Assembly: GCA_951406725.2 (NCBI GenBank)
Contig: OX597816.1
Location: 154,318,001-154,382,000, forward strand
From: Octopus vulgaris
Taxonomy: Eukaryota
DNA length: 64,000 nt
Reading direction: 5' to 3'
Shown piece by piece: positions 33,792 to 48,364 of this stretch. Numbering within the stretch: position 1 is the stretch's first letter; each line of letters opens with the position of its first letter. The notes under the pieces are model-generated. The model was not told where the DNA came from and searched no databases. It saw only the letters and a list, made by a program, of their open reading frames with translations. Made by a program: the position numbers and the translations under genes.

Positions 33792-34112
33792 GTGAGAGTA
33801 TTTTTTATTTTTTAAGTCATTCCATCTAAAATTTCTGTCAAAGAAGTGCAATTTGTTTCATCATTAGGTTTTAATTGAAAAATAGTCGATGATTTAATCA
33901 TTGTTTAGCGGATGATATTAGATTATGATTACACGAGGTCAGCCTAAGCATGGGATGCTTATACTTAGCGAAAGTTCTCCAAATTTTTAATACTTTATCA
34001 GTCTTTCCAAATTCTCTCCTATCTATCTATCTTTCATCTATCTCTATCTATCTATATATATATATATAAATAAATTAAAGCTTTTAGAATTAGCTTCGTT
34101 GGCTAAAATGGC

Positions 34113-34348
34113 TACGACGTGATTTACAAGATCATTGCTGATATAGTCTTGTAAAGTGGCAAACGGGAGCTGACTTTACTGTACTCTTCGGAGTATAGTT
34201 GTTTTGTGCAGTGAAATCCCATTCCACCATGTCGAACATAAATACTTGTCCCCTGGTTGCCAGCTGAGGACTTGAACAGGGTATATTCCAAAACTTCTCG
34301 TAGTCTCTGTGACTATTACCGGGGAGTGAGACCATACTCGGTACAGTT
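34113..34348 (+). ncRNA. SNORA73: U17/SNORA73/snR30 H/ACA snoRNA, copy A (RPLP0 intron 1)
   Basis: 5' stem cgacgtg/catgtcg, H box ACATAA at 34236, m1 ATATTCC at 34283, m2 AGACCAT at 34329, ACA at 34343-34345. AAGTGGC and TCCCATTCCAC blocks match recalled vertebrate U17. Confidence 0.88.
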
Positions 34349-34945
34349 CCATTATAATAATACTTTCTTTGGTAGAAAGCCTACAGGATTCTCTGGGATA
34401 TATTTTTTTCATCAATACTTGTTAATAGTCCATTTCATCTGCTGTTATTGTAATTTGATAAATTGGATCGTTCTAAGAACCAAAAAGATATTTAAAAAAT
34501 CGAGTATAAAGATTACTAGTATATTCTCTTAAAAGTAGATTAAAATTAAACAATGCAATGACTAGGTGAAAGTGTGATGGATTTCAGGCCATGTGCGTTA
34601 TGGCGGGTGCCTGCTTACGTGTGTCATTTCGTCGGAAATTTTTTTTCGAACCATATGCTATTTCTTTGAAGGCTAATTATCTTTCAGCGTATACACTAGA
34701 TATGTAGAAAAAGTTTCTGTACACTTAAGATTAATTTTGCTTTATACCATGTGAATGAACTCCTAAGAGTAAAATATACTCTTCTCCCAGTCAACCATTC
34801 CCTTGTATTAAGTACGGAGAATAAAACGCATGTAGTATATGTATCTGTTCATGATTGCCGTTATCTATTTACGCTTCGATATCATTAAAGTTGCAAAGGT
34901 GCGGGTTAAATTTAGTATAATAGTTTAATGTATGCGTTTAACTTA

Positions 34946-35183
34946 ACCGACGTGATTTATGAGATCATTGCTAAAATATCTTGTAAGTGGCAAACGGGAG
35001 CTGACTTTACTGTACTCTTTGAGTACAGTTGTTTCGTGCAGTGAAATCCCATTCCACCATGTCGGAAATAAATCTTGTCCCCTGGCTGATAAAGTCAGGT
35101 GAGGACTTGAACAAAGTATATTCCATAACTTCTCATAGTCTCTTTGACTATTACTGGGGAGTGAGACCATACTCGGTACAGTC
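34946..35183 (+). ncRNA. SNORA73: U17/SNORA73/snR30 H/ACA snoRNA, copy B (RPLP0 intron 1)
   Basis: ccgacgtg...ccaccatgtcggAAATAA (H box), m1 ATATTCCATA, m2 AGACCAT, ACA at 35178-35180. Confidence 0.9.
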
Positions 35184-35813
35184 TTATCAAGTGTTGTCGG
35201 TTTAAGACTGTATAGCGAGTAATTTGAATTCGAATACTGTACCACGTTCTTTCACAAGAGATCATACTTCGTCAACGATTTTCTACGCTTCTTTTAATCT
35301 TGAAGTTGTACATAACGAAGGAATTTCTAGTGATGGAGTGGGAGAAAAATGAGTCGTTTAGGATGCAAATAGCTGCTATTCGAACAACTGCATTGTACTG
35401 TTCGAGAGTTCATTTAAATGGCCTCAATTTTTTGGCGGGTTTTCAGAATATCCCTTCACATAAGTTGAAATTTCTCGGGATGCAAATTCTTGAAAAAAAT
35501 TCAATCTGAAGTGGAACAGCTATCTCAATAGTTTAAATTTTTTTATTTCCGGAAAACAGTTTGCGCTAAGTATAGTGTTTTTTATGCCTTCGGAAGGTGT
35601 ATATATCTGATCATTTGCCGAAGAAAAGGAACAGCATTGTAAGAAGTTAAGGTTTTAGTATAGTTCTGGGGCTACATTAGCCCCAAAGTATATTAAGCAC
35701 AACTTAAATTCTTTTTCCGTTTAAGGCTTCTTTTTTTTTATTACAACAATGGTTTAAAAAATTTTTTCAGATTTATCTTTAAATTGCTGTGGTGCAGTCC
35801 CTGATCCACCGAG

Positions 35814-35867
35814 ATGGTCAAGGAAGATAAATCAACCTGGAAAGCCAACTATTTCATCAAGATCATT
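35814..35867 (+). CDS. RPLP0: RPLP0 coding exon (exon 2, acceptor at 35770)
   Basis: [18 protein letters not shown] followed by gtaagt. Confidence 0.95.
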
Positions 35868-38800
35868 GTAAGTACAATTGTTTAATGTAAGCGTTTAACT
35901 TAACCGACGTGTTTTATGAGATCATTGCTAAAATATCTTGTAAGTGGCAAACGGGAGCTGACTTTACTGTACTCTTTGAGTACAGTTGTTTCGTGCAGTG
36001 AAATCCCATTCCACCATGTCGGAAATAAATCTTGTCCCCTGACTGATAAAGTCGGGTGAGGACTTGAACAAAGTATATTCCATAACTTCTCATAGTCTCT
36101 TTGACTATTACTGGGGAGTTAGACCATACTCGGTACAGTCTTATCAAGTGTTGTCGGTTTAAGACTGTATAGAGATCAGTATTTTAAAGTGTCTTCATTT
36201 TCTTTCAGCAATTGCTTAATGAATATCCCAAATGCTTCATCGTCAATGCAGACAATGTTGGCTCCAGGCAGATGCAGACCATCCGTATGTCACTCAGGGG
36301 CCATGCAGGTGAGAAAATTTTAAATAGTTTAATTTGTTTTTTCGTTCGCGTCTCAACCACATGCTTTGGGTTCAATTTCATGGGTTGCAACATGGGTAAA
36401 GTTGAAAGTTGTGTGCGTGTGTTGTGTACTATGACTTCGCGTGATAGTCGGTGTCACAAATAATTGTCATTCGTTTCCAATCTTTCATCGAAACTCATCT
36501 TCTTGGTCAGGGACAAATATCTTGTTTGGAAACGCGTGTGGTTTGGTGACTAGAAGAATGTTAATTGTCAGAGAATTTTATTCAATCTAGAAGGAAAAAT
36601 GAACGTTAAATTGGATATAAATTTTGAGGTGTGATGATGAAGTAACTGCTATTAAGTGTTCAGCTTTTGGCACTAGTAACCGAAAGGTTGAACCCACTAG
36701 TGTTTGCTGGGCGCTATGACAAAATGTAGCCAAGAATGGCTGTCTGAACACCCTATTCTTAATACTAAGAACTTCAGCATGCTTTTGATATTACTATACT
36801 AATTTGAAGAAAATTACTATACTAATTTTCTTTTCATCACATTCAGTTGTCCTCATGGGTAAAAACACAATGATGAGGAAGGCCATAAGAGGTCATTTGG
36901 AGCACAATGCAGCCCTTGAAAGGTAAGTTCGAGATTTTTTCCACTAAAATGCATATTGCCAGTTTCGATTTCGATGTTGCTTGGGTTATTCTTGATCAGA
37001 AGCAATCTTGAACTGGTATAATAATCCGGTCACTTTTTTGCCTTGTAGTTCTTTGATACTGGACACTACAACTTCCCCTTAAGTGATACAATTTTTAATT
37101 CTAAAATGTTCACCTTGTGTTCTATAAGGACGTGTCAATTAAATAATGGTATCTTTGATCATGCAGAAAATAAAGATTTACTTGCAACTATTGCATGAAG
37201 TTTTAAATGCAGATGCTGCTAAATTTGCAACCAGTGTGGGTTCAGACCGTCATTTTTTTTCTATTATAGCCTTGGACCACTCAAAACCTTGAGACTGGAA
37301 AGACTAGTCATGGTGTTTCATGCCTGTAAATGTCACTTATGCTAGCAGTGACCATTTCCAATCTCTTGTGAAAATTCATCTTAGCTATGGGGAAATAAGT
37401 GAAGGCTGGTGAATGGCAGGATGGCTGTAGAAGATCCATCTGTAATTCTGTTCTACCCATTCCTCAATGGGAAGGTGGTCTTGCTCATCCCCCACCTAAC
37501 AACCAATAAAATGCTGGATATAAGTACTGAAGTCAATTTTGTTAAAATCAAAATCGTAATCTATAAACATCAATAGAATTTGTAGCTCTGATACCAGTGC
37601 CGGTGGCATGTAAGAGGACCATCCGAACGTGGCCGTAGCCAGCCTCGTCTGGCACCACCTGTGCCGGTGGCACGTAAAAAGCACCCACTACACTCACGGA
37701 GTGGTTGGCGTTAGGAAGGGCATCCAGCTGTAGAAACATTGCCAGATCAGACTGGGTCTTGTGCAGCCTTCTGGCTTCCCAGACCCCAGTTGAACCGTCC
37801 AACCCACGCCAGCATGGAAAGCGGATGTTAAACGATGATAACTCCTGTGTTGCCCTAGCATGGCTGGAATATGAAATGAGTAAAAGATTTGCTTGATTAT
37901 ACAGTGTTGGTTGTAATGTGTTAAAATTTAGGTTATTAAACAAATACTTGTCTGTTGTAGGTTGCTACCACACATTAAGAACAATGTTGGTTTTGTGTTC
38001 ACCAAGAATGACTTGGCTGATATCAGGGATAGATTGCTGAATAACAAAGTAAGTTGATTTTCATTCCATCTAAACAGTGAAACTTTATTTTGATTGATTC
38101 TCATTCCCCTACTGATAAATTCATATTTATTTATAGGTAAAAGCTCCAGCTCGTGCTGGTGCTGTTGCTCCCTGTGATGTGTTGATACCTGCTCAAAATA
38201 CAGCTCTTGGTCCTGAAAAGACTTCTTTCTTCCAAGCTTTGTCTATCCCAACAAAAATCTCCAGGGGTACTATTGAAATCTTGAATGATGTCCGTTTGAT
38301 AAAGGAAGCTGATAAAGTTGGAGCTTCTGAGGCTACATTGCTAAACATGTTAAACATCTCACCATTTTCATATGGTTTAGTTATTGAGCAAGGTAGGTTG
38401 CGTATAATTTATTTTGCAGCCCTCAAGAATGATGAAAAAAAGAATGACTTTCGCTCTACTGAAAACTATGTAGATTCTTTATCACTGACTTAAGGGCTTT
38501 ATTTATTTAGTGTCTTGTCTGATTTATTAATTTTTTTGTTTATTCTTATACTAGTGTTTTTATTCTTATACGGTTAATATAAAGCGTTACGCCTTTCAGA
38601 AAATCAAAAAAAAGTGTGTAATAGGTGTAAAACAACTTCCTATGAACGAATATGAAAAAAAAAATGCCCGCACGCGAAAGGGGTGGGGGAGAGGACACGG
38701 AAAATTCACATCGGGAAGTTCCGAAAGCGTCTGAGGGGCCTCCCCGGGCACCAAAAAAAAATAGTGTAATATGTGTAAAACAACTTGCTCTAAACGAATA

Positions 38801-40824
38801 AAAATGCGCACTCGCGAAAGAGGGGTGGGGAGAGGCATCGGAAAATTTATATCGGGAATTTCTGAAAGCGTCTGAACCGGGCACAAAAACAAAAACAGCG
38901 TAATAGGTGTGAAACAACTTGCTCTAAACGAATATGATTAAAAAAATGCGCGCTCGCGAAAGGGGGGTGTGGGAGAGGCTTCGGAAATTTCCCATCTTCA
39001 GTCCACAGCCTTTAAACTAAGAAAAAATAGTGTAATTGGTGTAAAACTACTTGTTCTAAACTAGTATCAAGAACACACACTCACACATGAATCATAAACT
39101 CCAGGGGTACTATTGAAATCTTGAATGATGTCCGTTTGATAAAGGAAGCTGATAAAGTTGGAGCTTCTGAGGCTACATTGCTAAACATGTTAAACATCTC
39201 ACCATTTTCATATGGTTTAGTTATTGAGCAAGGTAGGTTGCGTATAATTTATTTTGCAGTCCTCAAGAATGATGAAAAAAAAAGAATGACTTTCGCTCTA
39301 CTGAAAACTATGTAGATTCTTTATCACTGACTTAAGGGCTTTATTTATTTAGTGTCTTGTCCGATTTATATTTAATTTTTTTGTTCATTCTTATACGGTT
39401 AATATAAAGCGTTACGCCTTTCAGAAAATCAAAAAAAAATGTGTGTAATAGGTGTAAAACAACTTCCTATGAACGAATATGAAAAAAAAAAATGTCCGCA
39501 CGCGAAAGGGGGGTGGGGGAGAGGCCACGGAAAATTCACATCGGGAAGTTCCGAAAGCGTCTGAGGGGCCTCCCCGGGCACCAAAAAAAAAATAGTGTAA
39601 TATGTGTAAAACAACTTTCTCTAAACGAATAAAAATGCGCACTCGCGAAAGAGGGGTGGGGAGAGGCTTCGGAAAATTTATATCGGGAATTTCCGAAAGC
39701 GTCTGAATCGGGCACAAAAACAGCGTAATAGGTGTAAAACAACTTGCTCTAAACGAATATGATTAAAAAAATGCGCGCTCGCAAAAGGGGGGTGTGGGAG
39801 AGGCTTCGGAAATTTCCCATCTTCAGTCCACAGCCTTTAAACTAAGAAAAAATAGTGTAATTGGTGTAAAACTACTTGTTCTAAACTAGTATCAAGAACA
39901 CACATGAATCATAAACTCCAGGGGTACTATTGAAATCTTGAATGATGTCTGTTTGATAAAGGAAGCTGATAAAGTTGGAGCTTCTGAGGCTACATTGCTA
40001 AACATGTTAAACATCTCACCATTTTCATATGGTTTAGTTATTGAGCAAGGTAGGTTGCGTATAATTTATTTTGCAGCCCTCAAGAATGATGAAAAAAAGA
40101 ATGACTTTCGCTCTACTGAAAACTATGTAGATTCTTTATCACTGACTTAAGGGCTTTATTTATTAGTGTCTTGTCTGATTTATATTTAATTTTTTTGTTT
40201 ATTCTTATACTAGTGTTTTTATTCTTATACTAGTGTATGACTCTGGAACTGTTTTTGCACCTGGTGTCTTGGACATTACTGATGATGATATCCGTAAGAA
40301 GTTCATGGCTGTAAGTACTTTTTTCATTTATAAACTCGTTGCAGAATGTTTAAAACTGCCTTCATCATGATATTCAAGTAATATATATATCTTCTTTGCA
40401 GGGTGTGACAAATGTTGCCAGCTTGTCTCTGGCTATTGGATATCCAACATTGGCTTCTATACCACATCTTCTTGTCAATGGCTTCAAAAATCTGGTTGCT
40501 ATATCTTTGGAAACAGATATTGAGTTTGAAGAAGCAAAAGAGGTATATTAGTTTTGAATTTTTTTTTTTTTTTTTCACTTGTTAAATCTGTCAATAAATT
40601 ACATCTGTGTTTTTATTGGATGAAACTATGAAAATGATTTGTATTTTCAGATCAAAGAGTTGTTATCAGATCCTGAGAAGATGGCAGCTGCTCTGGCAGC
40701 AAGTGCTGCTAGTACTGCTGCTGCAGCTCCTGCAGCTGCCTCTGCAGCAGAGGAAAAGAAGGAAGAAAAAGTAGAGTCTGAAGAAGAGTCTGACGAGGAC
40801 ATGGGTCTTGGCTTGTTTGATTAA
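35814..40824 (+). CDS. RPLP0: 60S acidic ribosomal protein P0 (uL10), 8 coding exons, 321 aa
   Basis: Coding exons are 35814-35867, 36209-36308, 36847-36922, 37961-38048, 38137-38392, 40234-40310, 40402-40542 and 40651-40824. All introns are GT-AG with consistent phases (966 nt total). The protein runs [36 protein letters not shown]...[19 protein letters not shown] at 40829. Confidence 0.97.
35903..36140 (+). ncRNA. SNORA73: U17/SNORA73/snR30 H/ACA snoRNA, copy C (RPLP0 intron 2)
   Basis: Almost identical to copy B including flanks. H box AAATAA, m1 and m2 present, ACA at 36135-36137. Confidence 0.9.
36209..36308 (+). CDS. RPLP0: RPLP0 exon 3
   Basis: tttcag|[33 protein letters not shown]|gtgaga. 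Confidence 0.95.
36628..36752 (+). ncRNA. SNORD22: U22/SNORD22 C/D snoRNA (RPLP0 intron 3)
   Basis: C box ATGATGA at 36634, D box CTGA at 36744 and terminal stem ggtgt/acacc. The central AAAGGTTGAACCCACT and the 3' hairpin plus TGTCTGA match recalled human U22 (AAAGGTGAACCCACT...TGTCTGA). Length is 125 nt. Confidence 0.8.
36847..36922 (+). CDS. RPLP0: RPLP0 exon 4
   Basis: [24 protein letters not shown] with canonical splice sites. Confidence 0.95.
36957..37093 (+). ncRNA. Box H/ACA guide snoRNA (RPLP0 intron 4)
   Basis: Hairpin 1 has stems ccagtt/aactgg and ttgctt/aagcaa. H box ATAATA at 37018. Hairpin 2 has stems tcactt/aagtga and ttgtagt/actacaa. ACA at 37088-37090. About 137 nt. Confidence 0.75.
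37580..37842 (+). mobile_element. SINE or RTE-related 3' tail in RPLP0 intron 4
   Basis: ggttggcgttaggaagggcatccagctgtagaaac...catggaaagcggatgttaaacgatgat. Related copies lie at 12080-12180, 56675-56780 and, reversed, 62660-62890. Confidence 0.75.
37961..38048 (+). CDS. RPLP0: RPLP0 exon 5
   Basis: [29 protein letters not shown] with canonical splice sites. Confidence 0.95.
38137..38392 (+). CDS. RPLP0: RPLP0 exon 6
   Basis: [35 protein letters not shown]...[12 protein letters not shown], donor gtaggt. Confidence 0.95.
38419..38497 (+). ncRNA. SNORD59: SNORD59/snR54-like C/D snoRNA, copy 1
   Basis: C box ATGATGA at 38429, guide AATGACTTTCGCTCT before D' CTGA at 38459, D box CTGA at 38485, terminal stem gccctcaag/cttaagggc. 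The guide matches recalled human SNORD59 (AATGACTTTCGTTCTTCTGA) except at two positions. Confidence 0.85.
38572..39098 (+). mobile_element. Single arm of a modular foldback-type transposon, copy 1
   Basis: Starts GGTTAA and contains three ~130-nt modules (gtaaaacaacttgctctaaacgaat...cgcgaaaggggtggggagagg...cggaaa). Homologous to arms 42657-43069 and 43820-44225. Confidence 0.8.
39099..39232 (+). pseudogene. Duplicated 3' half of RPLP0 exon 6 (pseudo-exon, copy 2)
   Basis: Identical to 38259-38392 at offset 840. It keeps the donor but not the native acceptor. Confidence 0.9.
39259..39339 (+). ncRNA. SNORD59: SNORD59/snR54-like C/D snoRNA, copy 2
   Basis: Same boxes and guide as copy 1, with a longer A run and one C>T change in the 5' stem. 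Confidence 0.8.
39397..39915 (+). mobile_element. Single arm of the foldback-type transposon, copy 2
   Basis: Tandem copy of 38572-39098 with scattered substitutions and small indels. Confidence 0.8.
39916..40049 (+). pseudogene. Duplicated 3' half of RPLP0 exon 6 (pseudo-exon, copy 3)
   Basis: Copy of 38259-38392 with one C>T change (CGT>TGT, R>C). The donor is retained. Confidence 0.9.
40076..40154 (+). ncRNA. SNORD59: SNORD59/snR54-like C/D snoRNA, copy 3
   Basis: C box at 40086, D box at 40142 and an intact stem. It lies about 80 nt upstream of the exon 7 acceptor, the usual position for intronic C/D snoRNAs. Confidence 0.87.
40234..40310 (+). CDS. RPLP0: RPLP0 exon 7
   Basis: (V)[25 protein letters not shown] followed by gtaagt. 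Confidence 0.93.
40402..40542 (+). CDS. RPLP0: RPLP0 exon 8
   Basis: [47 protein letters not shown]. Confidence 0.95.
40651..40824 (+). CDS. RPLP0: RPLP0 exon 9 (terminal)
   Basis: [10 protein letters not shown], Ala-rich hinge, acidic tail [13 protein letters not shown], stop TAA. Confidence 0.96.
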   Translation: MKELLSDPEKMAAALAASAASTAAAAPAAASAAEEKKEEKVESEEESDEDMGLGLFD

Positions 40825-42656: not shown

Positions 42657-44225
42657 GGTTAAACACAAAAAAAAAATTTTTTGTAATAGGCGTAAAACAA
42701 CTTCTAAACGTATATGAAAAAAAAAAATGCGCGCACGCGAAAGGGGAGGAGAGGCCTCGGAAAATTCATATCGGGAATTTCCGAAAGCGTCTGACCCGGG
42801 CACAATAACAAAAATAGTGTGAAAGGTGTAAAACAACTTGCTCTAAACGAATATGATGAAAAAAAATGTGCGCTCGCGAAAGGGGTGGGGAGGGGGAGAG
42901 GCCTCGGAAATTTCACATCTTCAGTCCACGGTCTTTAAACTTAGAAAAAAATAGTGTAATTGGTGTAAAACTAGTTCTAAACGATTATCAAGAACACGCT
43001 CACACATGAATCATAAACTCCGTATTTTTGTACGTATTTCGCAAAAGAAAATTCTGGAAAAAGTGAAGAAATGTTGGATCTCCGCCGTATGAATCAAAAT
43101 GCGTGACAGAATCTAACTATATATAAATCAATTGACAATGCATATGGATTCGTCTTTCTCTTTGCTTAGTCGTTTTTACCGAATTTTATTTGGCCTGATT
43201 AAGTTTATAAGTATTTTCTCCATTTCAGATAAGCATCTGATGGGTATTTTACAGATTTACTAGCGTAGCAAGATTGTACTCAGTTGGCTACAATAGGTTA
43301 TAACATACTGTATGATTGTATTAAGTTCCAGTAAAAATAATAAAATAAAAAGTAAGCAGATCATTTTTTTTAAAGAATAATATAAATGTACGTTTGTAAT
43401 GTACACTTTTAAAATTCTCGGGTATCTATCTATCAAACAAATATCAAGTGTTTTAAAATTTGTTCAGTGGAAAAAACAGGTGAGATAAATTTGGTCGTTC
43501 CTCCCTAAGTCTAGAATAACAAAGTAATATTAATCATAATTTTCCAAAAAGCCTAACAATTTGCAAATGTTTAGCTCTAAGTGCAGAATATTTTCATTTC
43601 TATTACCAGCAGGTCATCTATTAGTTAACAGCAAGAAAAAGATTAACTGCGATAAATGCATTTTCATTCGGAAGGATTATAAATAAACCAATCAAAGAAT
43701 GTTTCGCTTCACCTAAGTGTGTTTAACTGTATTTCTTGAAAAGATCTTGTAGAAAAACATGGTACTAACAAGTGAAATTAAGTTATCTCATAAGGAATGT
43801 TTTCTTTAACTTTAAAATATCTTCACTTTTTCCAGAATTTTTTCTTTTTTTTTTTTTTTTTTTGCGAAATACGGAGTTTATGATTCATGTGTGCTCTTGA
43901 TAATCGTTTAGAACTAGTTTTACACCAATTACACTATTTTTTTCTTAGTTTAAATGCCGTGGACTGAAGATGTGAAATTTCCGAGGCCTCGCGAGCGTGC
44001 ATTTTTTTCATCATATTTGTTTAGAGCAAGTTGTTTTACACCTATCACACTTTTTGTTTCTGTGCCCGGGTCAGACGCTTTCGGAAATTCCTGATGTGAA
44101 TTTTCCGAGGCCTCTCCTCCACTCCCCTTTCGCGCATTTTTTTTTTTTCATTCGTTTAGAGGAAGTTGTTTTACGCCTATTACAAAAAATTTTTTTTTGT
44201 TTTTTTGACTGGGTTTAACGCTTTA
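42657..44225. mobile_element. Foldback-type element with ~410-bp modular inverted arms and a 750-bp spacer
   Basis: 42657-43069 and 43820-44225 are reverse complements built from the same modules as the arms in RPLP0 intron 6. The element splits the pogo transposase N-terminus. Confidence 0.85.
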
Positions 44226-47400: not shown

Positions 47401-48193
47401 GTTACTCAGTGTAGAAATGGATGCAAATTTGTTATATAACAGGCAGAATTCTTATTCTGAAAAATACAATGTATCAACCCAAGTATCTTATTGATCCTAG
47501 AAGGTTGCAAAATTCAATAGAATTTCCTTTCAGAACAAAGTATTTTGTCACTCAAACAAATCTACTGGAGGGGCAAAAGTGATACATAGAAATTAACAAT
47601 TATTATATACTACATAAATCATATATCCCTGTTCTTCTAGAATTGCACTGTGCTGGAACAGCAACTTTTAGATATAATCCAAATACAACCTATCAGATCA
47701 TTAACATGTAAAATAGAAAATTTGGAATGAAAGAATGCAATTCGGCCTTCATTTAGTGTGTTTGCTTGGAACAAACTACTAATAGTGTGAAGTTCAACTG
47801 AGTACTTTGTAAATGAAAGGCTCATCAGTTATGTAGTACTGTGACTGCTTGGTATCGAACTATTTCCATATTGTACCTGCTTACAATTAAATGTCATGAC
47901 ATTAATACACTGCTGGTAACAGTATGAACTCCTGATCCTTTAGCTGGTAGTTGCTATGCAATTATAGCATACAGTTATAGTATTCAAGAAAGACCCCTTA
48001 CCTAAAAAAAAAAAAAAACTTTTTCAGCCTGTTGCTTGTTTAGAATGTCTGAGTATTTTTTTATACATAATAATCAGAGCAAGTGGTGATTAACCATTTA
48101 CATGAAAGCTAAAATATTTATCAATGTGCACAAATAAATATACCACCAATAAATTAGCTGGTTAAATCGAATCTGATATTATTTTATTTTACC

Positions 48194-48324
48194 GGGCGCC
48201 GTGCTTAAAGAGCGACAGCTGCCACCGGTTGTTAAAAATTGCGTCTCCGAAATCTCTTGATTGTGATTCCGCCCAGACGCTCGCAAATCGGCAACTGGGT
48301 GTCACTGACGACAAAGACCCTTTT
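48194..48324 (-). ncRNA. RNU11: U11 snRNA (minor spliceosome)
   Basis: The minus strand reads AAAAGGGTCTTTGTCGTCAGTGACAC...CGATT...GCGGAATCACAATCAAGAGATTTCGGA...AATTTTT...GGCAGCTG...CGGCGCCC, collinear with recalled human U11. About 131 nt. Confidence 0.92.
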
Positions 48325-48364
48325 AATAAACTAACATTTCATTAACTAATATATACCGCTACTA

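Follow-up and report, generated by a model that had tools for sequence, protein, structure and literature searches.

Intronic snoRNAs are freed by exonucleases that trim the host intron from both ends (PMC11028025). For C/D snoRNAs, a distance of ~70 nt from the 3' splice site has been reported to be optimal, and one snoRNA per intron is reported to be usual in animals (PMC1821038). The same source describes the Drosophila mfl gene, which carries four copies of DmSnR60 that were ascribed to duplications, each copy in an intron of its own and ~70 nt from the acceptor. The sno-lncRNAs of the human PWS region and of mouse RPL13A (SNORD33-SNORD34) are reported to arise from spliced-out introns that hold at least two C/D snoRNAs with skipped exon sequence between them, where two different snoRNAs are paired by alternative splicing (PMC4234469, PMC11028025). 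The uncoupling of snoRNA output from host-gene output by nonsense-mediated decay (NMD) has already been described for human snoRNA hosts (Lykke-Andersen et al. 2014, PMC4233243). Multiplication of snoRNAs within host genes is known, and it is rarely caught with the breakpoints intact.

Here we analyzed a window of 64,000 nt of Octopus vulgaris DNA, in which the RPLP0 gene harbors a tandem array of a snoRNA-bearing unit; the locus displays the two junctions, the family of the donor element and recombinant alleles that segregate. Similar to mfl, one C/D snoRNA is repeated within one host gene; in contrast to mfl as described, the duplicated RPLP0 units lack a working acceptor, and the copies share one intron, in which only the last copy is so spaced. 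Similar to the reported sno-lncRNA loci, at least two C/D snoRNAs reside in one spliced-out host intron, separated by skipped exon sequence, in a lineage-specific arrangement, and mouse RPL13A is likewise a ribosomal-protein gene. Unlike the pairing by alternative splicing reported there, the pairing in RPLP0, known here from the DNA layout, is fixed in DNA by duplication of a single snoRNA together with a transposon arm. As in the NMD-coupled human hosts described in PMC4233243, RPLP0 is a multi-snoRNA host whose internal splice sites would give premature stops, whereas its nonsense isoform is not among the listed joints and its candidate acceptors are either weak or not present in every allele. 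A search of the open-licence literature turned up no publication that deals with this locus or with sno-lncRNAs in molluscs. Altogether, the RPLP0 array is a real, lineage-level structural variant, the origin proposed for it in an earlier note is plausible, and the regulatory role proposed there is unsupported.

The RPLP0 (uL10) coding region (35814..40824, + strand) is intact and consists of eight coding exons (35814-35867, 36209-36308, 36847-36922, 37961-38048, 38137-38392, 40234-40310, 40402-40542 and 40651-40824) that encode 321 residues. The translated splice product shows 0 differences from the O. vulgaris protein CAI9720271.1 (P0122) and differs by three residues from that of O. sinensis, which bears out the earlier claim that the array leaves the protein unchanged. 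The intron 3' of exon 38137-38392 is 1841 nt long, compared to 184 nt for an intron with a single unit.

The array comprises three units and two arms, all on the + strand. Unit 1 (38259..38571) contains the 3' half of the real exon (to 38392), the GT donor, snoRNA copy 1 and an intron tail with the full proximal acceptor (AG 38553-38554). It is followed by arm 1 (38572..39098, 527 nt), one arm of a high-copy palindromic element that is built of ~140-nt modules and cut at a CTCC. Unit 2 (39099..39396) consists of a pseudo-exon (39105-39232), the donor, snoRNA copy 2 and a tail that lacks both the 20-nt duplication and the acceptor, and adjoins arm 2 (39397..39915, 519 nt). Unit 3 (39916..40233) consists of a pseudo-exon (39922-40049), the donor, snoRNA copy 3 and the native intron end, where a 20-nt tandem duplication in the acceptor region 40198-40236 creates two AGs, the proximal AG 40213 and the used AG 40233. 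A CTCC opens each unit (38259, 39099 and 39916), and the units measure 313, 298 and 315 nt. The GT donors of the three units are identical. Between units, there are 0-1 substitutions in the 128 nt of exon and 0-2 in the ~160-180 nt of intron, an identity far above chance, and the two arms differ by 8 substitutions in 519 nt plus 6 indels. The pseudo-exons do not appear more constrained than the arms (Fisher p 0.37-1.0, low power). The earlier note had placed the units and arms correctly and had correctly described a unit of half exon, donor, snoRNA and intron tail, but it missed the 20-nt acceptor duplication and the fact that copy 1 ends with a complete acceptor and copy 2 with none.

Each unit contains a box C/D snoRNA with a SNORD59-like guide. 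Copy 1 spans 38421..38495, with the C box at 38429, the D' box at 38459 and the D box at 38485-38488. Copy 2 (39261..39337) has an A-run of 9 and one C>U change in the stem that keeps a G-U pair, and in copy 3 (40078..40152) the distance from the end of the D box is 88 nt to the used acceptor and 68 nt to the proximal AG; both copies are also on the + strand. Boxes C, D' and D are found in proper order in all three copies, whereas by reading of the sequence C' is degenerate. These three boxes and the guide are identical across the copies, and the sequencing runs list no variant within them. The terminal stem that closes the C/D boxes has nine pairs with one mismatch (z -2.3, -1.3 and -2.3 for copies 1-3).

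At the gathering level, the Rfam search reported no C/D snoRNA in the window; against the SNORD59 model (RF00273), copies 1-3 score 26.7, 23.6 and 26.7 bits (E 0.046-0.34), compared to a gathering cut-off of 45. The guide 5' of box D' (38444-38458 and its counterparts) agrees with the family consensus at 12 of 14 positions, with exceptions at -1 and -5, the latter being C in octopus and U in the consensus. The guide base at -5 from D' pairs with the methylated base, the fifth-nucleotide rule, so octopus 18S would need a G where human has A1031, or else a mismatch would fall on the methylation site. SNORD59 (U59) is reported to guide 18S A1031 and to be hosted by human ATP5B (PMC3766210). The octopus snoRNA thus resembles the described U59 in guide and box layout but departs from it in score, in the base at -5 and in its host gene. 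We therefore retain only the weak label SNORD59-like for what the earlier note had named SNORD59. The core of the snoRNA has 0 exact matches in metagenome contigs.

Three further studies, under two organism labels, each contain at least two copies of the unit. Twenty of the 24 runs listed contain part of the stretch, and four were examined against positions 39350-40550, namely X1 (DNA, organism A), X3 (DNA, organism B) and the RNA-like X8 and X9 (organism A); organisms C, D and E were left out. This target holds one arm and one unit, so that tandem joins appear as go-back joints or two-piece contigs. X1, of which 80% was covered, is possibly the source of the window itself and hence not independent. 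The run data are contigs, in which rare variants are dropped and variants are collapsed, and from which RNA ends and levels are not readable. The intron-to-arm junction is directly present in three of the four runs, X3, X8 and X9: with a copy-2-type tail and 0 differences in both X3 and X8, and in X9 as the joint 40220>39387, which is of the copy-1 type with the 20-nt duplication. This recurrence under two organism labels rules out an assembly artefact as the source of the duplication, a possibility that the earlier note had raised. In X1, the unit contig reaches 2.36x the downstream depth and ends at a fork at 40230. The arm-to-exon junction is listed as a contig in one of four runs (X8) and can be deduced from bin depth in X1 (~1.0x) and X3 (1.6x), whereas X9 lacks such a contig, which was likely lost in graph simplification.

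The number of copies is a separate matter. The unit occurs three times in this assembly, as the earlier note had stated, whereas the runs independently support at least two copies and leave the third unconfirmed. It is possible, though the less probable case, that the assembly gained its third copy by joining two different two-copy alleles within the identical 128-nt exon piece. In line with such a join, the sequence in X3 splits into exactly two paths past the snoRNA (39.8 + 46.2 vs 85.9), X1 combines its 2.36x unit depth with an arm-to-exon junction at ~1.0x, the copy-1-type and copy-2-type junctions are never listed together in one run, and neither the copy-3 T at 39950 nor the private changes of copy 2 are found in any of the four runs. 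Against it, unequal crossover of the same two alleles would yield the identical sequence, contigs collapse variants, coverage of X1 is incomplete, and contig depth is a poor measure of copy number, given 1.0x in X1 and 1.6x in X3 for the same junction.

The arms belong to an abundant family, with an arm depth of 3,400-12,600x the single-copy depth in the bins computed (a rough sum). An intact member lies at 42657..44225 (no strand assigned), where inverted arms of ~415 nt flank an AT-rich spacer. The RPLP0 arms are 80-84% identical to both of its arms, and the element runs on past the CTCC at 43021, where the RPLP0 arms stop. Its inverted repeats (42661-43075 vs 43814-44204) share 82% identity over 423 nt and contain internal ~140-nt modules, as in Foldback/Mutator-like elements. 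Foldback and Mutator-like DNA transposons generate a target-site duplication of 9-11 bp; none of this length was found at the one intact element, which has 4-5-nt matches only, or at the RPLP0 arms, and the element contains no ORF longer than 96 aa. As for Cryptons, for which 4-6-bp terminal direct repeats within 11-13-bp inverted sites and a recombinase gene were sought, the element has a ~10-nt subterminal inverted motif common to both ends, with neither an ORF nor a clear direct repeat; Cryptons of animals have been reported without terminal repeats (PMC3212892). We considered Crypton, Helitron/Helentron and Mutator and assigned the element to none of them, as it does not match the feature set of any. 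In its first third, the O. vulgaris repeat paper PMC13282606 does not name the family, though its supplements may. Two metagenome contigs (L001 and L002) match the inner 21-mer of the element; we rejected these matches as homology, with ~0.05-0.16 expected by chance. The two contigs have one unrelated repeat in common, and their likeness to the octopus arm ends at 22-25 nt. A short palindrome followed by a GTCC-type microsatellite was observed in both (L002 1380-1490 and L001 1-90), which resembles the ends of Helentron-associated elements.

The junctions point to how the array might have formed. Microhomology-mediated end joining or template-switch repair can give tandem duplications with templated inserts and microhomology. 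The RPLP0 array shares with such duplications the direct repeat, a foreign insert at the junction, a 4-nt microhomology and a small duplication beside the breakpoint; it differs in that its insert derives from one arm of a transposon present in many copies and that a snoRNA lies within the duplicated piece, and here the pathway is one that we infer. The 4-nt CTCC microhomology, together with the lack of a transposase-type target duplication, would argue that the array arose by repair, with template switching and a templated insert, rather than by ordinary transposition. In the proposed sequence of events, a break would have occurred 3 nt before the acceptor, and repair would have copied ~520 nt of an element arm, then switched at the 4-nt CTCC match to the upstream exon and copied on to the next exon. 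The X3 and X9 contigs contain element copies that run past the CTCC, like the intact element, which lends plausibility to the earlier proposal that the arm was joined at the CTCC with a ~310-bp duplication that was later re-duplicated.

The variants are distributed as a mosaic over the units and runs. Copy 1 of the window and X9 carry the 20-nt duplication ahead of the arm, whereas copy 2 of the window, X3 and X8 lack it. In X3, a copy-2-type tail and a copy-3-type tail co-occur as the first and last copies, and a change at 40124 is common to all three X3 contigs, whereas X8 joins a copy-2-type tail to an arm that is mostly of the arm-1 type. Such mosaics suggest gene conversion or unequal exchange between units, and unequal crossover or gene conversion would have mixed the variants and given rise to two- and three-copy alleles. 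Most likely, then, the array arose as a duplication during break repair, with transposon sequence copied in as a templated insert, and was reshuffled by unequal exchange.

In RNA, the joint that removes the whole array is the one observed. The joint 40049>40234 is listed in both RNA-like runs (depth 8250 in X9 and 4.5 in X8), as is 40310>40402. By contrast, the go-back joint 40049>39922, which would mark pseudo-exon inclusion, and any joint to the proximal AG 40213 are both missing from the 15 joints listed of 26 in X8 and X9, where NMD was not inhibited. Moreover, the X9 exon contig is continuous across 39916-39922. The detection floor in X9 is ~1%, in that intron read-through at 1.3% of exon depth was kept and the arm-to-exon path, expected at ~0.6-0.8%, was lost; the depth of X8 is too shallow to limit inclusion much. 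Intronic paths in X9 amount to 0.6-1.3% of exon depth, as for pre-mRNA.

The earlier note had proposed that cryptic CAG acceptors at 39104 and 39921 define frameshifting exons of 128 nt, that their inclusion would give each snoRNA its own intron and make the mRNA an NMD target, and that snoRNA output could in this way be uncoupled from P0 protein output. The CAGs (39102-39104 and 39919-39921) and the 128-nt frameshifting exons are indeed present in the sequence. As acceptors they rank 55 and 56 of 95 intron AGs, with 4 T in the 20 nt upstream compared to 7-12 for the seven true RPLP0 acceptors, and with their use copies 1 and 2 would still sit 616 and 591 nt from the acceptor, compared to the reported optimum of ~70 nt. 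A premature stop more than 50-55 nt before the last junction triggers NMD. The stops predicted after pseudo-exon inclusion (39122 and 39939) would lie 326 nt before the last junction, so the predicted mRNA would be an NMD target as claimed, whereas inclusion itself was found in neither RNA-like run (floor ~1%, X9). With weak acceptors and no inclusion joint in either run, the uncoupling of snoRNA from P0 output via NMD finds no support.

A stronger internal site exists at the retained AG 38554, which ranks second of the 95 (behind 40213 and ahead of 40233) and lies 66 nt from the D box of copy 1. We consider it improbable that this AG or either cryptic CAG is used in some transcripts, yielding NMD-destined RNA along with extra snoRNA. 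Every inclusion tested would place a premature stop 326-716 nt upstream of the last junction (the stops for AG 38554, 38585, 38600 and the inner arm AGs are approximate), NMD and contig simplification would conceal such isoforms, and NMD-coupled uncoupling is documented in human hosts (PMC4233243). On the other hand, the cryptic CAGs are T-poor and ~600 nt from the snoRNAs, neither the inclusion joint nor the proximal-AG joint is listed in the two RNA-like runs, and the alleles of X3 and X8 lack the retained AG, whose use would give an exon of ~680 nt. As a separate observation, the proximal AG 40213 has the best T-tract of the 95 AGs, yet only the distal in-frame AG 40233 is listed in RNA; its use would shift the frame and create an NMD target without any pseudo-exon, and the duplicated acceptor is present in the DNA of X1 and X3.

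We favor the reading that error-prone repair created the duplication, that the array is spliced as one long intron, that the mature snoRNA derives from the last copy, and that the extra copies are probably near-neutral passengers. Internal donors without a usable upstream acceptor would be skipped. At 903 and 1745 nt from the acceptor in use, the two copies further upstream would likely assemble poorly and be trimmed away, and favorable spacing for copy 3 alone would hold the output at one snoRNA per transcript. The intact 321-aa ORF, the normal joint in both RNA-like runs, the weak cryptic acceptors and the pre-mRNA-like intron depth in X9 are consistent with this reading. Against it stands the presence of the arrangement in all four runs (three by junction and X1 by the fork and 2.4x depth), under two organism labels; the persistence of the array in a highly expressed gene could reflect a benefit. 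In addition, the boxes and guide are kept intact in every copy, and the 9-bp terminal stem predicted in each may permit snoRNP assembly without splicing.

Should the first and last copies both assemble snoRNPs and block trimming, a sno-lncRNA of ~890-910 nt (two copies) or 1727 nt (three copies) would result, which would hold a transposon arm and 128 nt of exon sequence and would lower, rather than raise, the amount of mature snoRNA. This outcome seems unlikely, though the layout suits it. The prerequisite for sno-lncRNAs is two snoRNAs in one intron, with a species-specific precedent reported in mouse RPL13A (PMC4234469, PMC11028025); at least two copies lie between the donor 38392 and the acceptor 40233, the only joint listed is the one that keeps all copies in one intron, and the boxes and stem are kept in all copies. 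In X8, contigs between the snoRNA copies cover most of the inter-copy stretch at a depth of 2.3-4.0, near the 4.5 of the spliced junction, and in X9 the tail of the first copy reaches 1.46x that of the last. X8 has no cover at 40170-40210, past the last snoRNA, and in the intron 40311-40401 and yet covers the inter-copy stretch; a hole at depth 2-4 proves nothing. However, X8 is close to the floor in depth, no library record exists for it and the run may include DNA, and the ends of an RNA are not readable from contigs. Cover in X9 extends past the last snoRNA into the intron tail (depth 56.6), which plain pre-mRNA explains, and pre-mRNA accounts for the inter-copy cover in X8 and the 1.46x excess in X9 as well. 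Furthermore, seven sno-lncRNAs were reported in human H9 cells, even though 48 snoRNAs are paired in single introns (PMC4234469). That a one-step, transposon-templated repair created a constitutive sno-lncRNA locus, with a snoRNA-capped 0.9-1.7-kb RNA whose length varies with array copy number, is accordingly a doubtful proposition.

Introns with multiple snoRNAs occur in flies and plants. Endonuclease cleavage between the copies, as in polycistronic precursors, would raise mature snoRNA two- to threefold, and it has a described counterpart in the Rnt1 processing of yeast polycistronic snoRNAs (PMC10557570); intron 1 of RPLP0 may likewise hold two SNORA73 copies. We give this route little credence: our search of the open-licence literature found no such activity described for molluscs, and no cleavage signal was identified at the array. 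Neither trimming with passenger copies nor a sno-lncRNA would triple the mature snoRNA, which would need internal splicing or an endonuclease. The earlier statement that the array triples the snoRNA therefore holds for the DNA of this assembly but not for the mature snoRNA, since trimming of one intron does not free three snoRNAs.

The RPLP0 locus represents a natural experiment on the one-snoRNA-per-intron rule, in which alleles differ in copy number, two or three, and in the retention of an acceptor. This allele set makes it possible to ask whether the extra copies are degraded, released or made into a sno-lncRNA. If they are simply degraded, as in the favored reading, the array is an ordinary structural variant that shows the tolerance of a ribosomal-protein gene for orphan donors and pseudo-exons. 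If the sno-lncRNA reading were true, the locus would record, in a form that can be traced, how an invertebrate sno-lncRNA was born, and would provide a natural test of two snoRNAs in one intron.

Further features were observed in and around the gene. The RPLP0 intron after exon 36209-36308 contains a SNORD22 (U22)-like snoRNA at 36629-36752 (38.1 bits, cut-off 50, E 2e-5). Three SNORA73 (U17) copies lie toward the 5' end of RPLP0, namely a (34114-34348), b (34947-35183) and c (35904-36140), of which b and c are 98% identical over 300 nt including the flanks, and b is accompanied by a decayed version of the donor of c. Copies a and b may sit together in intron 1 (33793-35770), forming a second candidate two-snoRNA intron, with the caveat of a possible small UTR exon between them (candidate acceptor 34687, donor 34899). 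An A>G change at 40182 in one X9 contig, which is not listed in the two DNA runs, is either an allele or an A-to-I edit. The intronic arms (38572-39915) run in the orientation opposite to that of the intact element's right arm (43814-44225), ~3 kb past the gene end, and a read-through transcript could pair them into a long double-stranded RNA. A gene for the U11 minor-spliceosome snRNA (94.5 bits) lies on the - strand at 48192-48325.
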